Part shown: positions 5,294 to 24,852 of the stretch, piece after piece
Layout of the letters: each line of letters starts with the position of its first letter
Numbering within the stretch: position 1 is the stretch's first letter
DNA from: an uncultured Verrucomicrobiae bacterium
Lineage (GTDB): Bacteria; Verrucomicrobiota; Verrucomicrobiia; Limisphaerales; UBA11358
Length of the DNA: 64,000 bases
NCBI GenBank assembly: GCA_963827205.1
Contig: CAWHAH010000004.1
Span: forward strand, 192,241-256,240
Direction: 5' to 3'
Position numbers and translations under genes: made by a program
Notes under the pieces: generated by a model
Databases searched by the model: none
Told to the model about the DNA's origin: nothing
The model's input: only the letters and a program-made list of their open reading frames with translations

Positions 5294-6112
5294 ATGGTAA
5301 CCCCATTGAAAATCGGCTTTCTTGGCGCGGGCAAAATGGCCACCGCGCTCGCCTGCGGCTTCATTCGCGGTGAACTCGTCAGCCCCCGCGAAATCATCGC
5401 CAGCGACCCGGCGGATGCCGCGCGCAAACATTTCGCCGCCGAAGTCAGCGCGAAAACAGTTGCGGCCAACACTGAAGTCGCGAAATTTGCCGGCGTTTTG
5501 ATTTTGGCGACCAAACCTGACCAGGTTTCAGCCGCGCTGGCGGAAATTCGCGGCGTGTTTACCGAAAAACATCTGCTCATCTCCATCGCCGCCGGCGTGA
5601 CGCTCGCGAAACTCGAAGCCGCGCTGCCCCCCGGCGCGCGCGTCATTCGCGTGATGCCCAACACGCCGGCGCTCGTCGGCGCGGGTGCGTCGGCGTTCGC
5701 GCTCGGCAAATCCGCGACGGCGGCGGACGGCGAGCTGGCGAAAAAACTTCTTTCCGCCGTCGGCCTGGCGCTTCCGGTAAAGGAACCGCTGCTCGATGCC
5801 GTGACCGGCTTGAGCGGCAGCGGCCCGGCGTATGTTTTTCAATTCATCGAGGCGTTGAGCGACGGCGGCGTGGCGGCGGGTTTGCCGCGCGATGTGGCTA
5901 CGAAGCTCGCCGCGCAAACCGTTCTGGGCGGCGCGAAGATGGTTTTGGAAACCGGCGCGCATCCCGGTTCGCTCAAAGACCAGGTGACCAGCCCCGGCGG
6001 CACGACGATTGATGGGTTGCACGAACTGGAAAAAGGCCGGATGCGCGCCGCCGTGATGAGTGCCGTCCGGGCCGCGACGGAAAAATCAAAAAAACTCGGA
6101 CAATCAAATTGA
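5294..6112 (+). CDS. proC: Pyrroline-5-carboxylate reductase
   Basis: MVTPLKIGFLGAGKMATALA Rossmann start and C-terminal VTSPGGTTIDGL motif. The long track ORF 4526-6112 is extended upstream by an antisense shadow of the Sel1 gene. ATG 5294 gives 272 aa. Confidence 0.95.
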   Translation: MVTPLKIGFLGAGKMATALACGFIRGELVSPREIIASDPADAARKHFAAEVSAKTVAANTEVAKFAGVLILATKPDQVSAALAEIRGVFTEKHLLISIAAGVTLAKLEAALPPGARVIRVMPNTPALVGAGASAFALGKSATAADGELAKKLLSAVGLALPVKEPLLDAVTGLSGSGPAYVFQFIEALSDGGVAAGLPRDVATKLAAQTVLGGAKMVLETGAHPGSLKDQVTSPGGTTIDGLHELEKGRMRAAVMSAVRAATEKSKKLGQSN

Positions 6113-6114
6113 GA

Positions 6115-6593
6115 ATGAATAAACCCGCCAAAATCGGTCTGCAAATTTTTGGGGTAATCATTTTACTCGGTGTTGGCTGGTTTACTTTTGCCTATATATT
6201 CCCAATGGTTGTTCTTTTTCACGGTTACCACACACAAATGGCAGCAGGACGAAAATACATGGATTCATTAACTGAGAAGGACATCCAAGTATGGGTTGAA
6301 CGGACTAAAAATTCCTCAATGAATATGATCCGAAAGCATACATAATCGGTGCTAAACCTGTCCCGCCTGAATTGAAGCAATTAAAGATTTTAAGAATAGA
6401 CGAAGACACAAATTGGGTTAGCTATGTCTGGGCGGGTGGTCTTGACCATACAGAACTTTATATCGAACGCATGGCTGACGGTGAATTTCAATTCACCGCA
6501 AGATATAATGACGAAAGTAATAGAGTAATTTGGCCAAAAGCACCGCATACTAATCATTCAACGACTAATCTGCCTTTTCAATTGATTCAGTAA
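6115..6593 (+). CDS. Hypothetical small membrane-anchored protein, apparently frameshifted at an A5 run (6307-6311)
   Basis: ORFs 6109-6345 and 6372-6593. The second frame is open back to 6309 and continues the first as ...VERTK|KFLNEYDPKAYIIGAKPVPPELKQLKIL. One TM helix (IGLQIFGVIILLGVGWFTFAYIF). Local GC is ~39%. Confidence 0.5.
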
Positions 6594-6644
6594 CTCCATG
6601 CTGGCCTTGACGCCGTATTTTCGCGGTGGCTGCTGGTCGGGATT

Positions 6645-6740
6645 ATTTCAAATTTGAAATTTCAGATTTGAAATCCGGAGGCGGGCGGGTGTATTCAAGA
6701 CTCCGGAAATTCCAAATTTGAGATTTCAGATTTCAAAAAA
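6645..6740. repeat. AT-rich imperfect inverted repeat built of GAAAT/ATTTC units around a GC-rich 20-nt loop
   Basis: Arm A 6645-6680 (atttcaaatttgaaatttcagatttgaaatccggag). Arm B 6701-6740 (ctccggaaattccaaatttgagatttcagatttcaaaaaa). The innermost 7 bp are perfect (tccggag/ctccgga). A third copy lies inside the next gene at 7067-7099. Confidence 0.6.
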
Positions 6741-6778
6741 TTAGTCGAAAAATCAACGCCCAACTCAAAAGGACAATC

Positions 6779-7306
6779 ATGACCTATGAACGGTTTGAAG
6801 ACCTGCCCGTCTGGAAAAAGGCGGCGGAACTGTATGAGCAGACCGAGGAATTGCTTGAAAATCACCACTTCAAAGCCACCTCCGCTTTTCGCGACCAACT
6901 GGACCGCGCGGCGCTTTCGGTGTCCAATAACGTCGCCGAAGGCTTTGAGCGCGGCACGACGAATGAATTGTTGCAATTCATTTACATCGCGCGCGGCTCG
7001 GCGGGCGAAGTGCGTTCGATGCTCACCTTGAAATTTCGTCGGACGAACAAAGCCAACGGGCCGGCGGATTTGAAATCTCAAATCTCCAATTTGAAATCCT
7101 GCGCCGAAAGCTGTTCGCGACAGTTGCGCGGTTGGGCGGATTCGCTCCAAAACTCCGAAATCAAAGGCCAACGCCATTTGAATGAACGGGTCCGGGCGCA
7201 GGAGGAGCAAAAACGCCGCGCCGCTGCATTTCAGCAGAAACTTTTGGAAAATCTGCCCGCCAACCATCCTTTGCGGCGCCAGACGGAAGCGCAAGCACGC
7301 GAATAA
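6779..7306 (+). CDS. Four-helix-bundle protein (23S rRNA intervening-sequence protein family) with C-terminal extension
   Basis: N-terminus MTYERFEDLPVWKKAAELYEQTEELL...FRDQLDRAALSVSNNVAEGFERGT..ELLQFIYIARGSAGEV is the family signature as I remember it. AAGGA lies 8 nt upstream of the ATG. The protein is ~55 aa longer than typical members. Confidence 0.85.
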   Translation: MTYERFEDLPVWKKAAELYEQTEELLENHHFKATSAFRDQLDRAALSVSNNVAEGFERGTTNELLQFIYIARGSAGEVRSMLTLKFRRTNKANGPADLKSQISNLKSCAESCSRQLRGWADSLQNSEIKGQRHLNERVRAQEEQKRRAAAFQQKLLENLPANHPLRRQTEAQARE

Positions 7307-7344
7307 ATCGGCTCGGAAGCAAACGAAACGGTTGGTTCCATCGT

Positions 7345-7542
7345 ATGAAGCGGGCACAGCGAAAATCAGAGAAGGCCGGAGACAAAATGCCAACCGAGGC
7401 TGTAGCGCCCAAGGACGAGTCCGGCGAGCCTTGGCGGTTTTGTCCACAGTGCGGGCATGAATTATTCAACGAGAAGTGCAAGCTGTGCTGTCCGCGCTGC
7501 CATTATTTCATGAGCTGCTCGGATTTCGATTTCGCCGGGTGA
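7345..7542 (+). CDS. Small zinc-ribbon protein (hypothetical)
   Basis: 65 aa with CPQC...(12)...CCPRC. An internal ATG at 7387 is also possible. No family recognised. Confidence 0.5.
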   Translation: MKRAQRKSEKAGDKMPTEAVAPKDESGEPWRFCPQCGHELFNEKCKLCCPRCHYFMSCSDFDFAG

Positions 7543-7635
7543 AGACACGGATTGCACGAATTAACGCAAATTTTATCCAGGCCATTTTCATTCGTGCCAA
7601 TTTGTGAAATTCGTGTAAAACTTCCCCTCGATTTC

Positions 7636-8232
7636 ATGAACGATTGGAACATTCAGTCCCGCGCCTCGGCGTGCGAGGCGTGCGCGCAGCCGTTTGCCGA
7701 CCGGCAGGGGTTGCACACGCTGCTCTTTGACGAGCACGCGGAGAATTTGCGCCGCATGGACGTTTGCGAAACCTGCTGGCAAAACCAATTCAGCGATGGC
7801 GCGCGCGACCGCAAAGGATTCATTTCCCACTGGCAAAGCATTTACGAAGTGCCGGCCGCGCCCGTGGACGCGATTCAACGCGAAACCGCCGAGACGCTCC
7901 TGCGAAAACTTATCGAGCAAAACGACCCGTATTATGCGCCCGCGATGTTCATTCTGGCCGTGATGCTCGAACGCAAACGCGTGTTCAAGGTGAAGGAACA
8001 GATTGTCCGCGAAGGCCGGCGCGTGTTCATCTACGAGCAGCCCAAGACCGGCGACGTGTTCACCATCGCCGATCCGGGTTTGCGGCTGGACCAACTGGAA
8101 CAAGTCCAGCGCGACGTGGCGGCCTTGTTGGAACATGGCCTGAACCCGCCTGCGCCCGCCGTCCAAAATCCCGCGCCGGCGGCGGAACAAACTCCTGCAG
8201 TTGAAGTTCCCGAAGGGACAACGCCGGCTTGA
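7636..8232 (+). CDS. Conserved hypothetical protein with N-terminal CxxC...CxxC motif
   Basis: ATG 7636 (MNDWNIQSRASACEACAQPF...VCETCWQ). The coding-like composition is continuous. The stop at 8230-8232 abuts the rnc leader stem. Confidence 0.75.
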   Translation: MNDWNIQSRASACEACAQPFADRQGLHTLLFDEHAENLRRMDVCETCWQNQFSDGARDRKGFISHWQSIYEVPAAPVDAIQRETAETLLRKLIEQNDPYYAPAMFILAVMLERKRVFKVKEQIVREGRRVFIYEQPKTGDVFTIADPGLRLDQLEQVQRDVAALLEHGLNPPAPAVQNPAPAAEQTPAVEVPEGTTPA

Positions 8233-8379
8233 ATTTATGATTTATGATTTACGATTTAGGATTGCCGGTCGTAGTGCGACTTGCGGTGAAGGATTAGCAA
8301 ATTCCCCGGTTTCGGCGTGTGGTTCGACCAGGCGTTCTGACGCGAAAAAATCATCAATCATAAATCGTAAATCATAAAT
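8233..8379 (+). promoter_or_regulatory. Long inverted repeat (31-position stem, 85-nt loop) filling the spacer and covering the rnc start codon; candidate RNase III autoregulatory or processing site
   Basis: 8233-8263 pairs with 8349-8379: 27 Watson-Crick pairs, 1 G-U and 3 mismatches, with 19 consecutive pairs. The arms are GATTTAY heptad repeats. A8378 and U8379 of the ATG lie inside the stem. Confidence 0.55.
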
Positions 8380-9103
8380 GTCCCTGGCTGAAATTCAAGC
8401 CCGTCTAGGCTACGCGTTCCGCGACGAGGGCCTGTTGCGGCTGGCATTGACGCATCCGTCCGTCGCGCATGAAAGCGGCCCGGCGGGCGCCGGCGGCGAC
8501 GAAACGCAGCGCAGGCCCGCGCACAACCAGCGGCTGGAATTTCTCGGCGACGCGGTGCTGCAACTCGTCCTTACCCGCGAGCTGTATGAAAAATTTCCCG
8601 CCTTCGACGAGGGCCCGTTGACCAAGGCCCGGGCGAAATTCGTCAACCGCCGCACGCTGGCCGAACGCGCCCGCGCACTCGGCCTCGGCGCGTATTTGAT
8701 TTTGAGTCACGGTGAGGAAACGCACGGCGGGCGGGAACGTCCGTCCGCGCTGGCGGACACGTTCGAGGCGCTGCTCGGCGCGATTTTTTTGGACGGTGGT
8801 TTCGAGACGGCGCGTGAATTCATCCTGCGCGAATTCGGCGCCGCATTCGGCAAATTGAGCGTGTTGCCAACGATTGAAAATCCCAAGGGCGAACTCCAGG
8901 AGTTGTTACAGGCCTGCTCGCCGGAAGCGCCGGAATATCGGGTCGTTTCCACAGCCGGGCCGGACCACGACCGCGAGTTTGAATGTGTGGTGCATCACGG
9001 GGGTGTGGAACTTGCGCGTGGCCGGGGCAAAAGCAAAAAGGCCGCCGAAAGCGATGCGGCCCGGGCGGCGTTGAAAAAAATGCGAGAGGAAATGGTAAAG
9101 TAG
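8378..9103 (+). CDS. rnc: Ribonuclease III
   Basis: Signature ERLEFLGDAVLQLVLTRELY and a C-terminal dsRBD (GPDHDREFECVV...GRGKSKKAAESDAARAAL). Confidence 0.97.
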   Translation: MSLAEIQARLGYAFRDEGLLRLALTHPSVAHESGPAGAGGDETQRRPAHNQRLEFLGDAVLQLVLTRELYEKFPAFDEGPLTKARAKFVNRRTLAERARALGLGAYLILSHGEETHGGRERPSALADTFEALLGAIFLDGGFETAREFILREFGAAFGKLSVLPTIENPKGELQELLQACSPEAPEYRVVSTAGPDHDREFECVVHHGGVELARGRGKSKKAAESDAARAALKKMREEMVK

Positions 9104-9104
9104 G

Positions 9105-9139
9105 GCGGCGAGTAACGCTGTCCGCGGACGCCTCGCCGC
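9105..9139. terminator. GC-rich hairpin between convergent rnc and the IscU-like gene (possible bidirectional terminator)
   Basis: gcggcgag (9105-9112) pairs with ctcgccgc (9132-9139). There is an inner palindrome gtccgcggac. A T5 run follows on the plus strand. Confidence 0.45.
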
Positions 9140-9143
9140 GGCC

Positions 9144-9632
9144 TTACTGTTTTTCTCCGTCGAGAAAAGTCAGTTTCACACGACCCTCCTTGGGCTTCGA
9201 AAAACTGTCCAGCAACGTCGGCGCGTTTGATGACATTGGCGCCGGTTTGGCTTCAATATTTTGTGGTTCGAGCGCGGAACGCAATGCGCCTTCAACGAGC
9301 TGGGCGCAGTGAATTTTCATCGGTGGCAGCGGGCCGAGTTCGCCGGCCAGTTCCTCGGTCTTGAGCGCGAGCGCTTCCTCGGCGGTCTTGCCGCGGATGA
9401 GTTCCGTGGCGAGGCTGGCGACAGCGATGGCAGTCTCGCAGCCAAAGGACTGGAAGGTGGCGCGGTCAATGACCCTTTTACCGTTCTGCTCCTTGAATTT
9501 CACCCATAGGCGCAGCATCTCGCCGCAATCCGCGTTGCCGACCGTGCCGACGGCGTCAGCCCCAGCCAGTTCGCCCAGATTCCGGGGATTGGCCAGCGCC
9601 GCCTGAATCCGCTTCTGCAAATCGTCGTTCAT
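9144..9632 (-). CDS. IscU/NifU-N-like iron-sulfur cluster scaffold protein
   Basis: GNADCGEMLRLWV...SFGCETAIAVASLATELIRGKTAEEAL...KIHCAQLVEGAL contains the three conserved Cys. ATG 9632 is chosen; the ORF upstream to 9851 looks non-coding. Confidence 0.85.
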   Translation of the reverse strand: MNDDLQKRIQAALANPRNLGELAGADAVGTVGNADCGEMLRLWVKFKEQNGKRVIDRATFQSFGCETAIAVASLATELIRGKTAEEALALKTEELAGELGPLPPMKIHCAQLVEGALRSALEPQNIEAKPAPMSSNAPTLLDSFSKPKEGRVKLTFLDGEKQ

Positions 9633-9828
9633 TCTTCGATCAAGAAAACCCGTTTCGGATTTCAAATCATACCACCAACCGGGCGGTTCCGCCAGAGTCA
9701 GCAAGTCGATTGCTGCCAAAGAATACCGCGTGACAAACACGGACATTCGGCGCAAAGTTTTGTGGATTTCGTTGATGAACTCAGAGACTTGGCAGGCCCA
9801 ACCGGGTTGAAACCTTGCCAACAGCCTG

Positions 9829-10938
9829 ATGCAACCTGAAAACCCCATCAAGATCGATCTGGCTTATTCGATTGCCGACCAGGACGTTGAGACGACCAAA
9901 TCCATTGGGATTTACAATTTTTCGCTTCATCTGGCGCGGTATCTGTCGGAGCATCCTCAACTTCGGAAATTCACGGTTTTCAGCAACAGCACGATATCGC
10001 CGAATTTGCGACTGGCGACCAAAGCCCGTGTTCAGGAATTCAATTTTGCCCGCCGGAGCAAGGTGGGCCGGATAGTGTGGGACCAGTGGAGCCTTTACCG
10101 GTCGGCGCGGGCCACGGGACATCGCTGGCTTTTTCTGCCCAAGGGCTTTTGCTCGTTCATGACGCGCCCGCGTCTGGAAGTCGCGGCCTTTGTCCACGAC
10201 GTCATGGGCGATTACTATCACCAGCATTATCCCGGATTTGAGTCGAAGCTTGGGTCGTTCTATTTTTTCCACAGTCTGGCGGCGACCCTTCGACAAAGCC
10301 GCGTGATTTTTACCAATACCGAGTTTTCGAAGCGCGAGTTGGCCGGTTGGGCGCAACGCACCGGATTATCCTGTCCCAAAGTGATTGTGGCAGGTTACGG
10401 TTTTGCCCCGCCCAATCCGTGCTGGACGGAAAAAGAAAACCGGATTTTGTTATTTGCCAGTGAACTGCCGCACAAGCGGACGGATATTGCCATCCGGTTC
10501 CTGACCCGCTGGCTGCGGGAGTCAAAGTATGATGGAGTCATTGACTGCATTGGAATTCTCTCGCCCAAGATGGCAAAGCCTGAAGGGCCGGGTTGGAATT
10601 GGATCGGCCGGGTGCTCCCGAACCGGGCGCGCGAAATGATGCGCCGGGCGCGTGCGGTCATCTATGTTTCAGATTATGAAGGATTTGGCATGCCTGCCGT
10701 GGAAGCAGTGCTGGAAGGCAGTTGCCCGGTCTTTTCAGACATTCCGCCGTTGCGTGAAGCGATGGGCGAGGCCGGCTGCCCGTTTTCAAACGATTCGGAG
10801 GAGTCCTTTCTTAAGGCAATGGACAGGGCTTTGACCATGCCTCCAGATACCATCCATGTCTGGGCAGCAGGGCTGCTGCGTCGTCATCATTGGCCGGTCG
10901 TGGCCGAAAAAATTGTGCAAGAACTTTCCACCGCGTGA
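9829..10938 (+). CDS. Glycosyltransferase family 4 (GT-B, group 1)
   Basis: C-terminal ARAVIYVSDYEGFGMPAVEAVLEGSCPVFSDIPPLREAMG is the E-x7-E region of retaining GT4 enzymes. Confidence 0.85.
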   Translation: MQPENPIKIDLAYSIADQDVETTKSIGIYNFSLHLARYLSEHPQLRKFTVFSNSTISPNLRLATKARVQEFNFARRSKVGRIVWDQWSLYRSARATGHRWLFLPKGFCSFMTRPRLEVAAFVHDVMGDYYHQHYPGFESKLGSFYFFHSLAATLRQSRVIFTNTEFSKRELAGWAQRTGLSCPKVIVAGYGFAPPNPCWTEKENRILLFASELPHKRTDIAIRFLTRWLRESKYDGVIDCIGILSPKMAKPEGPGWNWIGRVLPNRAREMMRRARAVIYVSDYEGFGMPAVEAVLEGSCPVFSDIPPLREAMGEAGCPFSNDSEESFLKAMDRALTMPPDTIHVWAAGLLRRHHWPVVAEKIVQELSTA

Positions 10939-17550: not shown

Positions 17551-17638
17551 GGCGGCGTCTTAATCTTAATCCTGCTCTTAATCGTGCTCCCCCCGGCTGA
17601 TTAAGATTACGATTATGAGTTGAGATTAAGATACCGCC
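17551..17638. repeat. AT-rich imperfect inverted repeat of TTAATC/GATTAAG units with GC clamps
   Basis: ggcggcgtcttaatcttaatcc... pairs with ...gagattaagataccgcc (about 20 pairs including G-U). A second register has taatcgt/acgatta. The loop is around ctccccccgg. Confidence 0.5.
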
Positions 17639-20446: not shown

Positions 20447-20534
20447 GCCTTCAAAAATAATGCGTTGGCAGTACATGTCAAGGCTTGCCATTGACGTTTG
20501 CCAAATGACATCCGCCCTCCCCATGAACCTCGTA

Positions 20535-20601
20535 GCAGCCGACGTGAGGAGGCTCATTCCAATCTAGGCGAATGAAGTCAGAGCCTCCTCACGTCGGCTG
20601 C
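20535..20601. repeat. Perfect 21-bp inverted repeat with a 25-nt loop
   Basis: gcagccgacgtgaggaggctc (20535-20555) and gagcctcctcacgtcggctgc (20581-20601) are exact reverse complements. Confidence 0.85.
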
Positions 20602-20640
20602 CACGGTTCAGGGGTTCAATACGCGAACGCTTTCGGGAAA

Positions 20641-23635: not shown

Positions 23636-24852
23636 GATGACCTTGACGGCGGCGGCGATTTCCGGATTTTGAAGATTGTTGATTGGCTCGCCCTCACCCT
23701 GACCCTCTCCCCGGGGAGAGGGGACAGCGATTGCGCGTTAGTCTTATTATCTGCAACTCCCGATTCGCCTGCCGTCGGCGAATTATCCTCCCTCTCCCTG
23801 GGGGAGAGGGCCGGGGTGAGGGGTTCGTTCGCCTGATACGTCGGCAGCCGCGCCGGGTCATCAATGCCTTCGACGATGAATTCCTTGCCCTCGATATTGG
23901 CGTGAATGGTGTAACGGCGGAACAATCCTTCGGCCAGCCATTGCCGCAAATAACCCTCGCGCGTGAAATGTTCCGGCGGATGAAAAACCGGGTAGTGCAG
24001 CTTGCCGAACTCGATTTCTACGTTACATCGTTCCGCCACCTCCAGAGTGTTTTTTACCGCCTCCGGCGTGTCGGCAAAACGCGCCTTCATTTCCTCCGCC
24101 GGGCGCAGGTAAAACTGCTCCGGTTCGTAGCGCAGCCGTTTCGTGTCAGCGAGTTGCGTCTGGGTGCCGATGCAAATCAGGCAATCGTGCGCGTGCGAAT
24201 GGCTTTTCTCGATGTAATGAACATCGTTCGTGGCGACGAGCTTCAGGCCGAATTCCTTCGCCCATTGAATCAAATGGCGGTTCACTTTTGCCTGTTCCGC
24301 AATGCCGTGGTTTTGCAGTTCGAGATAAAAATTATCCGGGCCGAGCGTTTGTTTGAACCAATCCACTGTTTCGCGCGCCTTGTCCAACTGGTCTTTCGTG
24401 ATCAAATCGGGAATCTCGCTGGCGAGACAGCCGGACATGGCGATGAGGCCGTTCTTGTGCGCAGCGAGCAGTTCTTTGTCTATGCGCGGCTTATAATAAT
24501 AACCGGTGAGATGGGCTTCGGTCGTCAGCTTGATGAGATTTTTGTAGCCGGTCGCGTCCCTGGCGAGCAAACCGAGATGATGATAAACATCGCGCCCACC
24601 GCTGGTGGTTTTCTTCTCCAACCGGCTGCCCGGTGCGACATACACCTCGCAGCCGATGATGGGTTTGATGCCTTTCTCGCGCGCGGCCTGGTAAAAATCA
24701 ATCGCGCCGTAGAGCACCCCGTGGTCGGTGATGGCGAGTGCGGGGAACTTCAATTGATGGGCCTTGTCCACCAGCCGGTCCAGCCGGCAGGCGCCATCGA
24801 GCAGCGAATACTCGGTGTGCAAATGGAGATGAACAAAGTCCGCGTGCGACAT
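23611..24852 (-). CDS. dnaE: DNA polymerase III alpha subunit, N-terminal PHP-domain fragment (413 aa including translated repeat)
   Basis: MSHADFVHLHLHTEYSLLDGACRLDRLV...ALAITDHGVLYGAIDFYQAAREKGIKPIIGCE is the PHP domain. The last ~65 aa ([18 protein letters not shown]...[17 protein letters not shown]) are translated element plus out-of-frame dnaE. Confidence 0.92.
   Translation of the reverse strand: MSHADFVHLHLHTEYSLLDGACRLDRLVDKAHQLKFPALAITDHGVLYGAIDFYQAAREKGIKPIIGCEVYVAPGSRLEKKTTSGGRDVYHHLGLLARDATGYKNLIKLTTEAHLTGYYYKPRIDKELLAAHKNGLIAMSGCLASEIPDLITKDQLDKARETVDWFKQTLGPDNFYLELQNHGIAEQAKVNRHLIQWAKEFGLKLVATNDVHYIEKSHSHAHDCLICIGTQTQLADTKRLRYEPEQFYLRPAEEMKARFADTPEAVKNTLEVAERCNVEIEFGKLHYPVFHPPEHFTREGYLRQWLAEGLFRRYTIHANIEGKEFIVEGIDDPARLPTYQANEPLTPALSPREREDNSPTAGESGVADNKTNAQSLSPLPGERVRVRASQSTIFKIRKSPPPSRSSWIASSMN
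23690..23823. repeat. 134-nt composite palindromic (MITE/RPE-like) element inside dnaE at the frame break
   Basis: Outer inverted ends ccctcaccc / gggtgaggg. Two inner perfect palindromes: ccctctccccggggagaggg (23703-23722) and ccctctccctgggggagaggg. The ~65-nt core has lower GC. 134 nt is not a multiple of 3. Confidence 0.7.

Follow-up and report, generated by a model that had tools for sequence, protein, structure and literature searches.

The stretch of DNA analyzed here, hereafter the window, comprises 64,000 nucleotides from a contig of an uncultured Verrucomicrobiae bacterium. It carries rnc, the gene for RNase III, just downstream of a conserved gene of unassigned function, and the whole spacer between the two genes is occupied by one inverted repeat made of GATTTAY heptads (Table 1). 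Given the in-frame TAA at 8375-8377, rnc cannot start before ATG 8378. The upstream gene matched no Pfam or NCBIfam family, and probably starts at ATG 7630 rather than at the listed TTG 7552, since conservation of the protein among relatives begins at MNDWNIQ; the listed TTG falls inside another hairpin with periodic arms.

Table 1. Features of the rnc junction and related hairpins in the window (4HB, four-helix bundle; MFE, minimum free energy)
Feature	Position	Strand	Remarks
Upstream conserved gene, function unassigned	7630..8232	+	Cys-rich motifs; precedes rnc in relatives
Stop codon (TGA) of upstream gene	8230..8232	+	Abuts left arm
Left arm	8233..8263	+	About 4 tandem GATTTAY heptads; first base directly 3' of upstream TGA
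Loop	8264..8348	-	Apparent decayed, frameshifted 3'-end relic of a minus-strand PF05635/TIGR02436 gene
Right arm	8349..8379	+	Overlaps the rnc start codon by two bases (A, T)
rnc (RNase III)	8378..9103	+	Ribonuclease_3 and dsrm domains; ATG 8378-8380
Heptad hairpin, GATTTCA/GATTTGA units	6641..6743	+	Just 5' of 4HB gene; z -4.5
4HB gene (PF05635/TIGR02436)	6779..7306	+	175 aa, intact-looking
Periodic-arm hairpin in upstream-gene leader	7552..7620	+	CACGGATT/CACGAATT units, period 8-9; MFE -20.7, z -2.5
AT-rich periodic-arm hairpin, TCTTAA units	17551..17638	+	MFE -36.6, z -5.5
GC-rich periodic-arm hairpin, CCCTCNCC units	23691..23822	+	MFE -84.5 kcal/mol, z -5.4

An earlier note, made on this DNA from its letters, had described the spacer as a stem that buries the rnc start codon, and had proposed it as a site of RNase III autoregulation. 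The geometry was recomputed essentially as described. The arms, of 31 nt each, form 27 Watson-Crick pairs and one G-U pair, with three mismatches; the element, 147 nt in all, is flush with both codons, and the first two bases of the rnc ATG lie within the stem (pairs A8378-T8234 and T8379-A8233). Two details had to be adjusted: the run of 19 consecutive pairs holds if the G-U pair is counted, the longest pure Watson-Crick run being 12, and the 85-nt loop, correct in size, is GC-rich only relative to the arms (58% GC, the window average, versus 19%). The small hairpins within this loop are incidental. Folding is far better than expected from composition, with an MFE of -55.1 kcal/mol for 8225-8390 (z -3.55) and of -49.9 kcal/mol for 8233-8379 (z -4.62), and none of 200 shuffles folded as well as the real sequence. 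Two consecutive GATTTAY heptads are found eight times in the window versus 0.71 times expected, and seven of these eight matches lie within the element. Contigs from independent DNA runs match exactly over 7700-8376 and 8356-8900; the hairpin is therefore not an artefact of assembly. The absence of a Shine-Dalgarno sequence before rnc, also remarked upon earlier, is correct as an observation, but we rejected it as evidence of regulation, since such motifs are at background level in the window (3 of 45 crude gene starts versus 9%).

The rnc junction was then compared across relatives. A protein scan of the genome collection with RNase III gave some 75-77 loci of the Verrucomicrobiota/Limisphaerales type, about 50-92% identical, in 73 of which the same upstream gene precedes rnc. 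The junction is empty (0-18 nt or gene overlap, for example TAA-ATTCC-ATG or TGA-CC-GTG) in 28 of the 73. GATTTAY-heptad hairpins occupy it in 17, of which 12 are short and window-like and 5 have an interior of 350-400 nt, and the number of heptads varies from three to five. Another 19 relatives have a hairpin of GAACATC heptads, unrelated in sequence to GATTTAY, and two each have a CACAGAG-type hairpin and a GC-rich CCCTCTCC-type hairpin, the latter type being also found in the window at 23691-23822. Some hairpin is present, in all, in 40 of the 73. The last five junctions contain other inserts, four of them low-GC stretches with small ORFs (L003, L053, L055 and L066), some membrane-protein-like. 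A similar low-GC island (39-42% versus 58%) lies in the window at 6100-6600, between proC and the 4HB gene, and contains two small ORFs of 78 and 73 aa with no Pfam match.

Empty junctions are found in the nearest relatives (L002 and L005-L008, 87-92% amino acid identity) and in every deep outgroup on the rnc tree, a neighbor-joining tree of one 220-aa protein; moreover, states are interspersed on this tree, even between sisters (L032/L033, L017/L075, L043/L049 and L001/L010). The rnc leader thus has no conserved stem, which the autoregulation proposal would require: apart from the empty spacers, relatives harbor at least four unrelated hairpins. We regard the rnc junction as a place where inserts have repeatedly been gained, lost or exchanged. 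Burial of the start codon fares no better as a design, for the arm ends about 11-23 nt before the start in the GAACATC hairpins (at least 13 nt) and in four GATTTAY loci (L010, L020, L028 and L050). Of 16 consensus pairs, a single one showed a double change (covariation term +0.86); the arms are too repetitive, and too alike by descent, for this figure to carry weight. Ten of the loci (L026, L038, L040, L043, L044, L049, L062, L064, L065 and L072) are clade members by their rnc, 60-80% identical, and by their synteny; several of their contigs are titled 'uncultured Bifidobacteriaceae/Bifidobacterium' and others bear Acidobacteria-type names, and these are probably mislabelled bins.

The five long GATTTAY versions indicate what the short ones may derive from. 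In each, the arms enclose an ORF of 116-128 aa scoring against both PF05635 and TIGR02436. PF05635 is the family called '23S rRNA intervening sequence protein', a four-helix bundle. The ORF is in forward orientation in L012, L051 and L068 and in reverse in L025 and L056; it is broken in L068 and intact in the four others, where it extends into the arm and stops at a heptad TAA. Two of these loci, L051 and L056, are sisters on the rnc tree and carry the same cassette in opposite orientations, so that the interior was inverted or re-inserted recently; the opposite orientations point to an inversion in which the two arms recombined.

We aligned the loop of the window element with the four intact cassettes (L025, L056, L012 and L051). 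It is collinear with the 3' end of the reverse-oriented 4HB ORF, after which a gap of about 280 nt follows, and local alignment scores clearly exceed those of shuffles (z 6.8 against L056, z 5.7 against the reverse complement of L012). The minus strand of the loop reads FTASRTTTGNPKS and then a stop, versus FNATRTTARNHKS and then a stop in the cassette, with a frameshift upstream. Because the loop aligns with the end of this ORF and some 280 nt are missing, we interpret the window element, like that of L009, as an internally deleted, ORF-less copy of a cassette consisting of a heptad inverted repeat and a 4HB gene. Although the ORF has decayed, about 87% of the arm positions still pair, and the arms share at least 95% identity with other copies; pure decay is therefore an insufficient explanation. 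Comparison of filled with empty rnc junctions disclosed no clear target-site duplication, one that would be hidden by the palindromic, AT-rich ends of the element, and no transposase, recombinase or other mobility enzyme was seen in the cassette loops; for these reasons, 'inserted' is used here on the strength of the comparison between loci. Two other accounts of the arms were discarded: integron attC sites, judged by eye, as the arms lack a match to the RYYYAAC/GTTRRRY cores and flank the ORF at either end, and a role in providing stop codons in all frames, which holds for GATTTAY and fails for GAACATC arms.

The arms are by no means confined to rnc. In metagenome contigs scanned by exact pattern for three GATTTAY heptads, at least 120 stretches were found, at a GC content of 21-63%; among the 120 matches listed, one adjoins rnc (L145) and 119 do not. 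About 40% of the listed stretches were recovered as hairpins, a lower bound, as for all our hairpin counts, because the detector is ungapped and misses gapped hairpins such as that at 17551-17638. Among the matches listed, loops are mostly 8-120 nt long and some reach 330-560 nt; a 4HB ORF lies between the arms in L086, L189 and L194, and just inside an arm in L090. These hairpins mostly lie about -8 to +13 nt from ORF ends, as located by crude ORF calls, so that filling a spacer and touching a start codon would be a trait of the family.

The same dispersal is apparent in the soil runs that contain this genome. There, the depth of the arms is 25-177 versus 6-13 for the flanks (3-14x), the copy number in the genome itself being deduced from assembler depth, and both arms (30-32 nt, at least 95% identical) recur in five or more other contigs of similar depth from the same samples, enclosing different loops of 24-28 nt between different flanks. 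One of these copies is again flush with an ATG and is directly followed by ATGTCCCT. A search of RNA runs gave none containing the rnc junction of the window; metatranscriptome contigs matching L012 include arms, many hairpins and one exact 4HB ORF contig. We interpret the GATTTAY arms as a multi-copy dispersed repeat in the organism or its community, which bears out a caveat of the earlier note that the stem might belong to a general repeat family.

Within the window, too, that caveat proved well founded: the AT-rich repeats already pointed out near 6645 and 17551 are real, and two more hairpins with periodic arms lie at 7552-7620 and 23691-23822. Near the first of these repeats, a tract of heptads runs in frame through 7060-7097 of the 4HB gene (LKSQISNLKS) and is complementary to 6645-6737, and a hairpin followed by a 4HB gene with a heptad tract is also found in L009 (355-811). 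The Pfam match of the window 4HB gene ends just before this tract. The hairpin at 7552-7620 has counterparts: related hairpins with arms of period 8-9 (CACGGATT, CGCGAATT, CGCGAAG) are found at the leader junction of the upstream gene in about 25 of 72 loci. The hairpin at 23691-23822 and the insert at the rnc junction of L004 and L014 are members of one family. GC-rich hairpins with CCCTCNCC/GGGGAGAGGG arms recur at unrelated places: at 23691-23822 in the window, at about 3865-3991 in L004 and L014, and at 7271-7421 in L043. In 8.7-kb neighborhoods examined with the strict detector, long hairpins with periodic arms occupy the rnc junction in 22 loci and the next junction in 5, which leaves room for a site preference specific to rnc, a hotspot or selection.

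The closest known parallel is the S23p-type intervening sequence (IVS) of 23S rRNA, found in Coxiella burnetii and Leptospira (PMC4990558). In Coxiella, the IVS has a 28-bp terminal inverted-repeat stem with a decaying S23p (4HB) ORF in its loop, its 5' region contains two to three tandem GACAGAT heptamers in strain-variable number, and RNase III cuts within the stem; as late as 2016, this study described what IVSs do and where they come from as unclear (PMC4990558). The elements described here share with it a terminal stem of about 28-31 bp, a decay-prone PF05635 ORF in the loop that leaves ORF-less hairpins behind, arm regions with tandem heptamers in varying number, and a fixed site that is occupied in some close relatives and not in others. 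[quoted passage not shown] Since it is not located in 23S rRNA, we did not file the window element as an IVS, and instead consider it the remnant of an IVS-like cassette, located in an mRNA spacer. REP/BIME and MITE-like palindromes are likewise short, multi-copy hairpin elements of intergenic spacers whose presence varies between strains; here, however, the arms are tandem heptads, full versions carry a 4HB gene instead of a transposase or RAYT, and no target-site duplication was seen. A literature search turned up no account of heptad-armed 4HB cassettes outside rRNA, which is weak evidence of novelty.

Taken together, these comparisons make it probable, in our opinion, that the 147-nt element is a deleted, ORF-less copy of a palindromic cassette lying flush between two genes, which RNase III would cut and whose feedback on rnc would be a by-product. 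The cassette, a 4HB gene bracketed by inverted repeats of tandem GATTTAY heptads about 30 nt long, would have entered an ancestral junction only a few nucleotides long, to lie flush between the upstream stop codon and the rnc start, and the 85-nt loop would be junk left over from the 4HB gene. On the bicistronic transcript, the arms would pair into an AU-rich duplex of about 31 bp, which RNase III would probably cut, thereby uncoupling the two cistrons, to judge by the rRNA intervening sequences. Cleavage of the stem is plausible because its architecture matches that of the Coxiella 23S rRNA IVS cut by the enzyme. Feedback on RNase III synthesis would follow from the landing site, and would not be a conserved regulatory design.

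A variant that is compatible with this cassette-remnant explanation, and which we consider possible though doubtful, is that the insertion is translationally 'transparent'. A ribosome terminating at UGA 8230-8232 would melt the outer dozen or so pairs and free the rnc AUG, because the base of the stem joins stop and start codons; stop/start coupling would then be kept, and the hairpin tolerated rather than used. Preserved coupling may even be the reason why flush insertions are tolerated. The short ancestral junction (0-18 nt, with no Shine-Dalgarno sequence), the exact fit of the element between both codons, the location of other GATTTAY hairpins around ORF ends and the copy that runs straight into ATGTCCCT all agree with this idea. 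It is nevertheless purely inferential, the metagenome ORF calls on which it draws are crude, and the arms of GAACATC type end too far from the start, at least 13 nt before it.

Alternatively, the element might act at the DNA level only, the heptads being binding or recombination sites for the 4HB protein or a transposase and the RNA hairpin irrelevant. Several features would be expected from this: it is the sequence of the arms, beyond their pairing, that is conserved between copies with unrelated loops, the opposite orientations in L051 and L056 are those expected from recombination between inverted arms, and heptad number varies between loci. Yet neither a recombinase nor a target duplication was found, and hairpins do occur in metatranscriptome contigs; we judge this DNA-only reading unlikely.

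The reading proposed in the earlier note, dedicated RNase III autoregulation in which the stem both lets the enzyme cut its own leader and masks the start, as does E. coli rncO, now appears quite improbable. It has a precedent: according to PMC5371410, citing Matsunaga 1996 and Bardwell 1989, E. coli rnc is under negative autoregulation through the cutting of a structure in its 5' UTR. In length, the stem would suffice as an RNase III substrate, more than half of the relatives (40 of 73) have some hairpin at this place, and the rnc junction is the most occupied by long periodic-arm hairpins of the 8.7-kb neighborhoods (22 versus at most 5). Against it stand the stemless junctions of the closest relatives and of all outgroups, the division of the hairpins into unrelated sequence families, the lack of any constant burial of the start codon, the presence of the identical arm type at many other genes and the same hairpin pattern in the leader of the upstream gene. 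A permissive Rfam scan of 5500-10000 gave nothing at 8233-8379, and only sub-threshold noise from miRNA models at 6643-6740; the promoter and terminator scan, of limited value for this phylum, called neither a terminator nor, on the plus strand, a promoter-like site in the element. Like rncO, the element is a stem directly upstream of rnc and a candidate target of the rnc product, but the two lack homology in sequence or structure (no Rfam match), the present one is not conserved among relatives, and it is a repeat-derived element between two cistrons instead of a primary 5' UTR. What stands of the proposal is thus a long AU-rich duplex joining stop and start; the dedicated switch does not, with 28 of 73 relatives empty and the arms found elsewhere. 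As far as comparison of sequences can tell, the hairpin is not a dedicated, conserved rnc switch. An incidental feedback on rnc is conceivable, given that in E. coli the enzyme cleaves its own leader and so down-regulates itself.

Equally improbable, in our estimate, is the more ambitious view that heptad-armed 4HB cassettes form one mobile family including the rRNA intervening sequences, of which these would be just the best-known members, and that the rnc junction has been re-colonised repeatedly in this clade by GATTTAY, GAACATC, CACAGAG and CCCTCTCC hairpins because a stem cleavable by RNase III provides useful dosage feedback on the enzyme. If true, a domesticated selfish hairpin would be an analogue of rncO; the heptads might, on this view, be bound by the pentameric 4HB protein. 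Finally, the AT-rich, simple-repeat nature of the arms might evoke an intrinsic terminator or attenuator, a chance microsatellite or an assembly artefact, but these readings are effectively refuted: the arms are 19% GC, and the stem is followed by GTCCCTGG and no T-run, at a place where the scan called nothing; homologues occur in many genomes and shuffles never fold as well; and the contigs from independent assemblies are exact.

The cassette-remnant explanation replaces a gene-specific riboregulator by a repeat element, and calls for caution when start-codon 'occlusion' is met in hairpin-rich genomes. It would tie rRNA intervening sequences and their S23p/4HB ORFs to a wider class of mRNA-spacer cassettes, with both orientations, multi-copy arms and rapid turnover. 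Moreover, the rnc junctions of close relatives constitute a natural set of alleles (empty, hairpin only, and hairpin plus gene), a ready system for testing RNase III cleavage and the effects of such hairpins on operon expression.

Two minor observations concern the surroundings. The window contains a small conserved zinc-ribbon ORF (CPxCG...CPRC) at 7345-7542, a homologue of which lies on the minus strand in L059 (4688-5042) inside a heptad inverted repeat of GTGAAAC units with a 299-nt loop; the cargo enclosed by heptad arms is thus not limited to 4HB genes. A GC-rich inverted repeat is also present in the window at 20531-20605, with arms of 25 nt that are 96% complementary and a loop of 25 nt.
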